Shown here: positions 32,605 through 33,538 of the stretch, one piece after another
Position numbering within the stretch: position 1 is the first letter of the stretch
Layout of the letters: each line of letters begins with the position of its first letter
The notes under the pieces: generated by a model
Databases searched by the model: none
Told to the model about the DNA's origin: nothing
The model's input: the letters and a program-made list of their open reading frames with translations, nothing else
Position numbers and translations under genes: made by a program
Sequence record: MK327929.1
DNA: 64,000 bases
Source of the DNA: Escherichia phage D5505
Reading direction: 5' to 3' (one strand)

Positions 32605-32690
32605 TTTATTCTCCTTTGTTTGTGTAAGATAATACTATCACAAAGGAACCATACTGTAAACAACTTTATGCAATCTTTGGAAAATAAAAA

Positions 32691-32710
32691 AGGACTCCCG
32701 AAGGAGTCCT
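32691..32710 (-). terminator. rho-independent terminator (GGACUCC-UUCG-GGAGUCC + U-tract)
   Basis: 7-bp perfect stem, UUCG loop, followed on minus strand by TTTTTTATTTT; just downstream of the small basic-protein ORF. Confidence 0.8.
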
Positions 32711-32714
32711 CAAC

Positions 32715-32891
32715 TTATGCTTTCTGCTTACCAAAACGAGAAGCATCATCTCGAAGAACCGCACGTGCTCGGCGCATGATCTTCTCAACAGTTTGATTGA
32801 TACGAGAGTTCGACCCACGCTTGTAGCCAGCGCGTTTAGAATCACCAACTTTCTTTTCAACTGCTTTCTTTGCTTTAGCTTGTTTTGCCAT
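32715..32891 (-). CDS. small basic protein (58 aa, MAKQAKAKKAVEKK...)
   Basis: Track ORF 32715-32933 (72 aa); internal ATG at 32891 with AGAG-type SD is the more likely start; Lys/Arg-rich; own terminator. Confidence 0.55.
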   Translation of the reverse strand: MAKQAKAKKAVEKKVGDSKRAGYKRGSNSRINQTVEKIMRRARAVLRDDASRFGKQKA

Positions 32892-33289
32892 TATAAATTC
32901 TCTTTTAAATGAAAATGCAGGACTTATTGGCATTGCCTGCGCAAGCCCTCAAGGGGAACATAGGTTTTTGGATATTTAACGACCAGGATAACCATAAACC
33001 CGTCATCATACCTTATAGCTCTTATCTGTTGCACACCGTTAGCTTAAAGGTTCCGGGTTCGATTTCTCGAGGATAAGATATATACTGATGGATATATAGG
33101 CCTTGAGGCGTACTCCCGATTGGCCATCACCTCGGGGTAGCATGCACTTGCCGCTATAAGAATAACATTCAAGAGGTACACCGTAAAACTGCCGGGGTCT
33201 TAAAACTATAATGATTCACAAATCATTAATCAGACAGTTCGACGGCTCCTCGTTTTAACTTCACACTAAGGCAGTGACTCTCCAATAAA

Positions 33290-33538
33290 TTACTTCAGTG
33301 TTACCACAAAGTGACGAACTGCTTTTCGTGCAGCAGAAGCCAGAGGCTTAGCATATTTAAGTTCATCTTTTTCCTGAAGCTCAGCAGCTAATGCAGTTTG
33401 AGCAGGATTCAGATGTTTGAAATAACGCAGGATTTCAAGAGCTTCGGCTTCAACATCAATAGATGCGCCATAGTTTTCGTGACCATTATTCCATGCGTTT
33501 CGTTGCAGTTCAAGAGCGTGTTGTAATTGTTTAATCAT
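33290..33538 (-). CDS. rIII: rIII lysis-inhibition accessory protein
   Basis: 82-aa ORF = T4 RIII length; located between 31 and the 30.x cluster as in T4. Confidence 0.8.
   Translation of the reverse strand: MIKQLQHALELQRNAWNNGHENYGASIDVEAEALEILRYFKHLNPAQTALAAELQEKDELKYAKPLASAARKAVRHFVVTLK

Follow-up and report, generated by a model that had tools for sequence, protein, structure and literature searches.

The DNA analysed here is a 64,000-nucleotide stretch of Escherichia phage D5505 (MK327929.1), hereafter the window, and our subject is the spacer between rIII and gene 30.9. This part of the window corresponds to the Tequatrovirus cd-31-rIII-30.9-30.8 segment, in which all genes lie on the minus strand. 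The upstream gene, rIII (33290-33538, minus strand), shares a transcription unit with the downstream gene 30.9 (32715-32891, minus strand), which encodes a Lys/Arg-rich protein of 58 amino acids (phrog_1427), and a terminator scan places a strong intrinsic terminator at the end of this unit (32690-32711, minus strand). Both genes show 100% nucleotide identity to their counterparts in T4, the best studied of virulent phages. The gap from the rIII stop codon (33290) to the 30.9 ATG (32891) measures 398 nt, compared with 244 nt in T4, and is the largest in the neighbourhood, adjacent gaps in a near-identical annotated phage being 56-147 nt long. A first-pass annotation made from the letters alone had described an unusually long, GC-enriched spacer devoid of open reading frames (ORFs) of at least 60 codons, next to a basic 58-aa ORF with its own terminator. 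This description stands with two amendments: the length had been put at 355 bp, and an upstream extension of 30.9 does reach 60 codons, as the only such ORF on either strand. The GC fraction rises to 0.49-0.54 at 33050-33199, against approximately 0.29-0.40 in the surroundings. The annotation had not recognised that the GC-rich centre forms a discrete cassette, one that T4 lacks. The comparative analysis presented below demonstrates that the spacer is the intercistronic part of the minus-strand rIII-30.9 transcript, composed of several independently folding RNA modules, and that its centre, which we name element A (33012-33160, minus strand), is a discrete and optional RNA domain of 149 nt, with a closing stem and a four-way junction.

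An optional cassette downstream of rIII

Alignment of the window with T4 reveals an insert of approximately 153 nt in a spacer that is otherwise nearly identical. The T4 indel takes out element A exactly from stem to stem, and the corresponding T4 site is the junction between GAATGT and GAATGATGA. The insert is approximately 95% identical in Klebsiella phage JD18, which belongs to a different genus and has an unalignable flanking spacer, as is the rule for the flanks of the element between genera. A search with the insert alone matched 407 phage records from at least nine lineages, namely Tequatrovirus, Dhakavirus, Moonvirus, Jiaodavirus, Karamvirus, Muldoonvirus, Roskildevirus, Kagamiyamavirus and an unclassified Erwinia phage, the hosts of which span Escherichia, Klebsiella, Enterobacter, Citrobacter, Serratia and Erwinia. 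The BLASTN-type comparison with phage and host genomes that had been proposed at the outset was thus fruitful on the phage side only: blastn of the element against 5,426 E. coli genomes found no similar sequence, and mimicry of the host or an origin from it was rejected on this ground. Within Tequatrovirus the carriers are a minority (178 of 940 records matching the flanks), and the absence of the element from T4, T2 and most laboratory T-evens is probably why it has gone unnoticed.

The location of element A is constant. It lies between rIII and 30.9 in each of nine annotated genomes, it was found in 15 of 40 rIII loci from IMG/VR, each time just downstream of rIII, and not a single case was recorded at any other genome position, so that it is a single-copy element of one locus. 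A model search with filters off yielded no degraded copies in the rIII loci lacking the element; presence and absence are therefore clean. In phages CF1, Cronus, COW86c, PG7 and EcS1 the element starts only 8-27 nt past the rIII stop codon, too short a distance to accommodate its own promoter, and it is co-transcribed with rIII. An early-like promoter spotted by eye (GTTTTAC...TATTCT), with a start within the closing stem, was discarded because genera in which the element directly adjoins rIII do not have it. Expression of rIII has been reported from early, middle and late promoters (PMC9409239).

The sequence of the element core is also well preserved. Its identity to the window is 100% in JS98 (rIII 84%, 30.9 68%), 95.6% in both JD18 (76% and 81%, respectively) and CF1 (74% and 67%), 92.6% in PG7 (71% and 73%), 85.2% in both Muldoon (72% and 69%) and COW86c (72% and 73%), 80.3% in Cronus (67% and 59%) and 71.6% in EcS1 (73% and 77%). 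Judged from these identities, the element is under stronger constraint than the neighbouring genes in seven of the eight comparisons (80-100% versus 59-84%), EcS1 being the exception. The JS98 case, with an identical element between divergent genes, suggests that the element has been exchanged between lineages, and the spacer modules in general appear to move between lineages by recombination. In the window, rIII and 30.9 match T4 at 100%, while the element matches JS98 at 100%.

Fold of element A

The fold was derived from an alignment of 26 distinct sequences in the gene-strand sense. RNAalifold, the comparative folding suggested by the first-pass annotation, returned a multi-branched consensus with compensatory changes in 21 of 44 pairs. 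One small predicted loop helix was replaced by a loop-loop helix spotted by eye and the pairs were then counted, the final model comprising 46 pairs in eight helices. In this model 99.0% of the 1194 pair cells are paired, versus 28-44% when the partners are slid by 1-3 columns, and 22 pairs change on both sides, versus 2-7 in the slid controls; none of 500 shuffles attained the observed values. Read in the sense of the minus strand, all 44 wobble cells are G.U, and A.C does not occur among the 12 unpaired cells. Thus, the functional molecule is the gene-strand (minus) RNA, and the G.U-based alternative pairing earlier proposed for the plus strand concerns the wrong molecule. With covariation and conservation extending over at least nine phage lineages, the initial suspicion of a structured RNA, rather than a simple spacer, is borne out. 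Folding energies contribute little to it: z-scores of -1.69 (element, minus strand), -0.78 (element, plus strand) and -0.87 (entire gap) are unremarkable, and the case for structure consequently rests on the comparative data and not on thermodynamics.

In the model, four stems meet at a junction with zero linker bases between them, all on the minus strand. The closing stem P1 (33153-33160 with 33012-33019) is variable in sequence, and its arms were also found by a repeat scan. Arm 1 (33099-33152) comprises P2 (33150-33152 with 33099-33101), invariant save for one U.G, an invariant junction AAGUGCAU, the long stem P3 (33132-33141 with 33108-33119), with compensatory change in six pairs, and a 12-nt loop. 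Arm 2 (33079-33098) is the hairpin P4, 99.5% paired and with three compensatory pairs. Arm 3 (33020-33078) contains P5 (33072-33078 with 33020-33026), backed by the pair counts, the hairpin P6 (33059-33070), the almost invariant P7 (33054-33058 with 33033-33038) and the invariant segments GCUAA and GCAACA. The P6 loop is mostly of the GNRA type: most sequences have GAAA (as in the window) or GUAA, whereas a few have UAAA or UAAU; on the plus strand, GGTTCGATT is the reverse complement of the 3' side of this hairpin. The inverted repeats that matter are therefore ones left unnamed in the first-pass annotation, 33012-33019/33153-33160 (the closing stem) and 33014-33026/33072-33084.

Arms 1 and 2 are further connected through their loops. 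The strand UGAUGG (33124-33129, minus strand) pairs with CCAUCA in the loop of P4 (33086-33091, minus strand) to form a helix of 6 bp, in which 156 of 156 cells are paired and three positions show compensatory change (C-G/U-A in a 17:9 ratio, G-C/A-U/U-A and G-C/A-U). The variants are YGAUGG/CCAUCR, AAUGA/UCAUU in Cronus and EcS1, and UAUGG/CCAUA in Muldoon; in PG7 and in locus L029, column 82 is uncoupled from the adjacent stem and the kissing pair is still kept. According to this covariation, the two neighbouring arms are locked side by side by the kissing helix. Three other pairings seen by eye, GGCC/GGCC between loops, AAGG/CCUU and the alternative GAGGYG/CGCCUC, lack covariation and were dismissed. 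The junction and loop bases are near-invariant across phage genera, and the overall architecture, covarying helices around invariant junction bases, is that expected of a riboswitch aptamer.

The same data bear on two explanations that do not invoke an RNA. The first, a decayed gene, as the first-pass annotation had offered among its options, or an unannotated small protein gene, is improbable in the extreme. ORFs of 34-55 codons do occur in the gap, the candidates being a 55-codon plus-strand ORF (32909-33076), minus-strand ORFs of 34 and 45 codons and a coding sequence annotated over the element in COW86c, and some records carry a "hypothetical protein" here. However, stops interrupt every frame of the element on both strands in all 10 representatives, its indels are of 1, 2 and 7 nt, its substitutions are pairwise compensatory, as in RNA, and ORFs such as the 34-codon one are broken in other genera. 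The second is a DNA-level element (a mobile insertion, a recombination site or an origin) with palindromes acting as DNA, a proposal that would fit the presence/absence polymorphism, the clean boundaries and the 100% identity between phages with differing flanking genes. We nevertheless consider it very unlikely, given that the strand asymmetry (44 G.U versus 0 A.C) is unexpected of DNA cruciforms, that target-site duplications or terminal repeats are lacking beyond the covarying stem, and that the element is single-copy and always at one locus; free recombination among T4-like phages explains the exchange without mobility.

Element A has no counterpart among the catalogued RNAs. With Rfam 15 (4227 models) we obtained no gathering-level hits in the 64-kb window, and even at E<=10 there was nothing over 33012-33160, nor over the element in seven homologous loci, so that the Rfam search recommended at the outset names no family. 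An ARAGORN scan of the window for tRNA and tmRNA returned 0 genes. The element's covariance model, run with filters off over T4 69500-74500, scored at best 4.9 bits, outside rnaC and rnaD, and these two T4 RNAs were rejected as relatives for want of a model match. Exact-pattern searches of viral, metagenomic and bacterial-genome collections gave hits outside T4-like phages, all of which fail the covariance model; covariance filtering left 0 at E<=1 in approximately 1.7 Mb, and two hits at E 0.17-0.27 were judged to be chance. A 16-base pattern, CTAACGGTGNGCAACAG, repeatedly matched cyanobacterial contigs (L185:1155-1342, L169, L219 and many Nostoc loci), in L185 as three copies spaced by 80-90 nt. 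The covariance model rejects these matches, which may belong to an unrelated cyanobacterial repeat. In the literature, searched also by the sequence itself, no description of the element was found. Altogether, the proposal that element A represents a new family of structured RNA, with no catalogued relative and missing from the type phage T4, is strongly supported by these sequence comparisons.

The modular spacer

The whole rIII-30.9 spacer was read in 10 genomes and 20 further loci. It is a mosaic of small modules whose order varies by genus, and in T4 too it is a set of exchangeable folded RNA modules. Nearest to rIII in the window is module U (33173-33252, minus strand), a long two-part hairpin that T4 also has. 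It counts 25 pairs, five with compensatory change among close relatives, and its constant G.U pairs are possible on the minus strand only. The perfect 8-bp hairpin TAATGATT-CACA-AATCATTA (33209-33228) noted in the first-pass annotation is real, but it is only the tip of this larger conserved structure. Module U is common to T4, JS98 and Mosigvirus-like phages, and its 5' base carries GAGGAG, containing GGAG. The GGAG motif is cut by the T4 RegB nuclease, the activation of which RIII is reported to inhibit (PMC9409239).

Module B (32963-33004, minus strand) folds as an H-type pseudoknot in which, besides a stem and a linker rich in A, the GGUU of the loop pairs with AACC further downstream. All rIII-30.9 spacers that were examined contain it, that of T4 among them; in JD18 and Muldoon it precedes the element, and elsewhere it follows it. 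Its pairs are 88% paired versus 34-57% in slid controls, with 26 compensatory cells versus 2-7, and both stems show compensatory switches (e.g., GGUU/AACC to GUGAG/CUCAC, CAAGGUU/AAUCUUG). A 34-codon minus-strand ORF (32905-33009) opens at the conserved AUGAUG of module B and spans modules B to D; it is shortened to 5-13 codons in JD18, Muldoon and JS98, and the 55-codon plus-strand ORF mentioned above is antisense to it.

Module C (32946-32956, minus strand) is a small hairpin, CCC-UUGA-GGG, followed by CUUG, conserved as GUACCC-loop-GGGSCUUG; in COW86c and EcS1 it precedes the element, in the others it comes after it. It includes one arm of the complementary blocks CCTCAAGG (32947-32954) and CCTTGAGG (33101-33108), which the first-pass annotation had correctly located and interpreted as a long-range helix. 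In effect, the single-sequence minimum-energy fold of the whole gap does pair CCUCAAGG (33108-33101, in the element junction) with CCUUGAGG (32954-32947, in module C). This helix is rejected, owing to uncompensated changes (in EcS1, Cronus, COW86c and Muldoon) and to the position of module C on the other side of the element in two lineages. By chance alone, a sequence of 421 nt should contain approximately 1.3 perfect inverted repeats of 8 nt.

Module D (32907-32940, minus strand) consists of a hairpin (GCAGG...CCUGC) and a U-rich tail, and it immediately precedes the ribosome-binding site of 30.9. Its stem differs by genus (GCAGG/CCUGC, GAACUGG/CCAGUUC, GGGAGC/GCUCCC, GAGAGGU/ACCUCUC), and it is always the last module, followed by the U-rich run and the 30.9 start codon. 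A simple terminator scan does not call it, and it may act as a leaky terminator or attenuator. Module D together with the ribosome-binding site (32889-32949, minus strand) accounts for the sole hit of the Rfam searches, a weak, non-significant match (14.5 bits, E=9) to the DUF2815 RNA, a motif from phage-like sequences in which a hairpin precedes a start codon. The product of 30.9 itself has no match in Pfam, NCBIfam or PDB, and was for this reason not retained as a recognisable RNA-binding protein. Directly after the 30.9 terminator lies an early-type promoter for 30.8 with a TG (TTTACA-17-TAGTAT, 32632-32660, minus strand), an arrangement of terminator and promoter typical of T4 early regions.

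The site of element A exists in three states. In T4 modules U and B adjoin directly, in the window the element lies between them, and in a third group of phages an unrelated closed hairpin of approximately 50 nt (…CGUCAGAAAAAGGUUAUCUGUCUAAG…), with five compensatory pairs, sits exactly at the element site (L233:1870-1925, and L235, L238-L241, L244, L246, L248 and L250, with rIII on the plus strand). The loop of this smaller cassette and that of module B share GGUUAUC. In phi92-like phages, which are not T4-like (L271 and L272, 1501-1620), the last 40 codons of a T4-type rIII and approximately 16 nt of downstream spacer are embedded in a cluster of 12 tRNA genes and run directly into tRNA-Gln.

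Given this succession of hairpins, element A might be a passive stability or termination element, whose stacked hairpins would block 3'-5' exonucleases or pause or terminate transcription after rIII. Its position 3' of rIII, the several further hairpins in the gap and the annotation of phage SA21RB, where a WebGeSTer "terminator" sits within P3, would agree with such a role, which we hold to be improbable all the same. That predicted terminator has no U tract, none follows the element, and scans of the gap (32892-33289) for promoter and terminator consensus and for intrinsic terminators returned no site. Moreover, a passive barrier needs no near-invariant unpaired bases, kissing loop or four-way junction.

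Possible roles and known counterparts

Folds of this complexity, with a four-way junction and a kissing loop, are usually found in RNAs that have a specific binding partner. The near-invariant bases of the junction and loops, displayed on a kissing-loop scaffold, point to recognition of a specific protein or small ligand and not to base-pairing; in line with this, the three conserved single-stranded blocks have no extended complement in the 64-kb window, nor does the window hold second copies or antisense targets of the element, the search having covered extended complementarity and blastn-level E. coli similarity, with short seeds below that reach. We tentatively favour a cis-acting, factor-binding domain within the rIII-30.9 transcript, which would tune 30.9 read-through or translation, or the stability of the rIII message; this mechanism is one that we infer. 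The element would offer a preformed binding platform to some conserved partner, which could be a small ligand or a protein of the host or the phage (e.g., RNA polymerase, the ribosome or a decay factor), and would act by means other than base-pairing. It would work on its own transcript, setting the transcription or translation that continues through module D into 30.9, and/or the survival time of the rIII message. The cis-acting platform is preferred because the element always lies upstream of module D and 30.9.

Several observations weigh against this preference. The distance from the element to the 30.9 start varies from 45 to 186 nt, other modules intervene, and their order flips among genera, a variability that argues against a classical riboswitch platform but is compatible with action via the transcribing polymerase, as in the put RNA. 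No alternative pairing of the 3' strand of the closing stem with module D was found, and no classical riboswitch expression platform is apparent. Gene 30.9 and modules B, C and D persist in T4 and in most Tequatrovirus genomes, which lack the element; the latter is therefore dispensable for 30.9 expression. As to the fold, P2 and P7 hardly vary and are hence outside the reach of covariation, and the diversity is small, many of the 26 sequences being close. Finally, an excised, stand-alone RNA would account equally well for the closed stem and the sharply bounded cassette.

Such a trans-acting stable RNA is almost as likely as the cis-acting domain. In this scenario the element would be cut from the rIII-30.9 transcript at the base of the closing stem and accumulate as an RNA or ribonucleoprotein of approximately 150 nt, binding or titrating a host or phage factor, for example as a host-defence decoy or a modulator of a host machine. 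The conserved domain lies entirely within the closing stem, and it is exactly this unit, stem to stem, that the T4 indel removes; another closed hairpin cassette occupies the same site in other phages; the shuffled order among genera implies that the modules act independently; T4 dispenses with the element; and the JS98 copy, 100% identical between genes of 68-84% identity, suggests cassette exchange. T4 also offers precedents in rnaC and rnaD, stable small RNAs of unknown role (PMC3014915). On the other hand, neither a promoter or terminator of its own nor recognisable processing signals were found for the element, and it never occurs at another genome position.

A bolder alternative is that element A belongs to a new sensor or catalytic RNA class specific to T4-like phages, either a ligand-sensing riboswitch or a self-cleaving ribozyme, its invariant junction bases being the putative pocket or active site. 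The variable closing stem, the parallel helices held by a loop-loop contact and the near-invariant junction are typical of aptamers and small ribozymes, and both a gene and a hairpin with a U tract lie downstream of the element. In addition, the window, JS98, CF1 and PG7 allow a pairing of CCUCAAGG with module C, a possible alternative conformer, although changes on either side of this complementarity are uncompensated in EcS1, Cronus, COW86c and Muldoon. We find this alternative unlikely: the Rfam riboswitch and ribozyme families remain unmatched even at the permissive threshold, in the window as in the seven homologous loci; the element is confined to one phage locus, with no bacterial copies; no adjacent expression platform overlaps the closing stem, with 45-186 nt to 30.9; and most self-cleaving ribozymes, unlike element A, are not single-copy. 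If true, element A could be a new self-cleaving ribozyme, or else a riboswitch-like element, the first from a T-even-type phage, that senses a metabolite of the host or a signal of infection or defence and adjusts the rIII-30.9 unit accordingly; T4 would have lost it in the laboratory lineage or earlier.

Whichever role applies, the window phage and T4, identical in both flanking genes, form a near-isogenic natural pair that makes the role of the element directly accessible. The modules offer an entry point to what 30.9 does and to how expression is controlled post-transcriptionally around the lysis-inhibition gene rIII.

Among known RNAs, the purine and lysine riboswitch aptamers share with element A a variable closing stem, a multi-helix junction with near-invariant bases, parallel helices held by a kissing contact and a location upstream of a gene. 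They differ in that the element has no Rfam match, possesses a four-way junction with an extra branched arm, lacks an expression platform over its closing stem and is found at one phage locus only. The hairpin and twister-sister ribozymes likewise use a four-way junction to juxtapose conserved internal loops of adjacent arms, but element A has neither their signature sequences nor a match to them in Rfam. Closer to home, T4 rnaC and rnaD (the species 1 and 2 stable RNAs) are small T-even RNAs of 119-139 nt and of unknown function, themselves co-transcribed with their neighbours and processed. Their locus, however, is the tRNA cluster, and rnaC ends in a tRNA-like arm that the element lacks. 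For module B, and not for element A, the counterpart is the pseudoknot of the T4 gene 32 mRNA leader, also of H-type and also in a T4 5' leader or intercistronic region; the likeness noted here is one of architecture, and module B lies 60-150 nt from the start codon.

The cassette behaviour of the element brings to mind the PeSL (promoter-early stem-loop) cassettes of T4-type genomes, reportedly described by Arbiol et al. in 2010 as short non-coding units, sited at gene boundaries, that flag where modules are shuffled. Whereas a PeSL combines a terminator-like stem-loop with an early promoter, element A is a complex fold of 149 nt with no such consensus. The put RNA of HK022, which like some other RNAs mediates processive antitermination in cis, is another highly conserved, phage-encoded folded RNA within a transcription unit and upstream of terminator-like hairpins. 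It is smaller (approximately 70 nt, with two stem-loops), the likeness is by description, and antitermination by element A would be purely conjectural. Nonetheless, a put-like action through the transcribing polymerase would tolerate both the variable distance of the element from 30.9 and the changing order of the modules.

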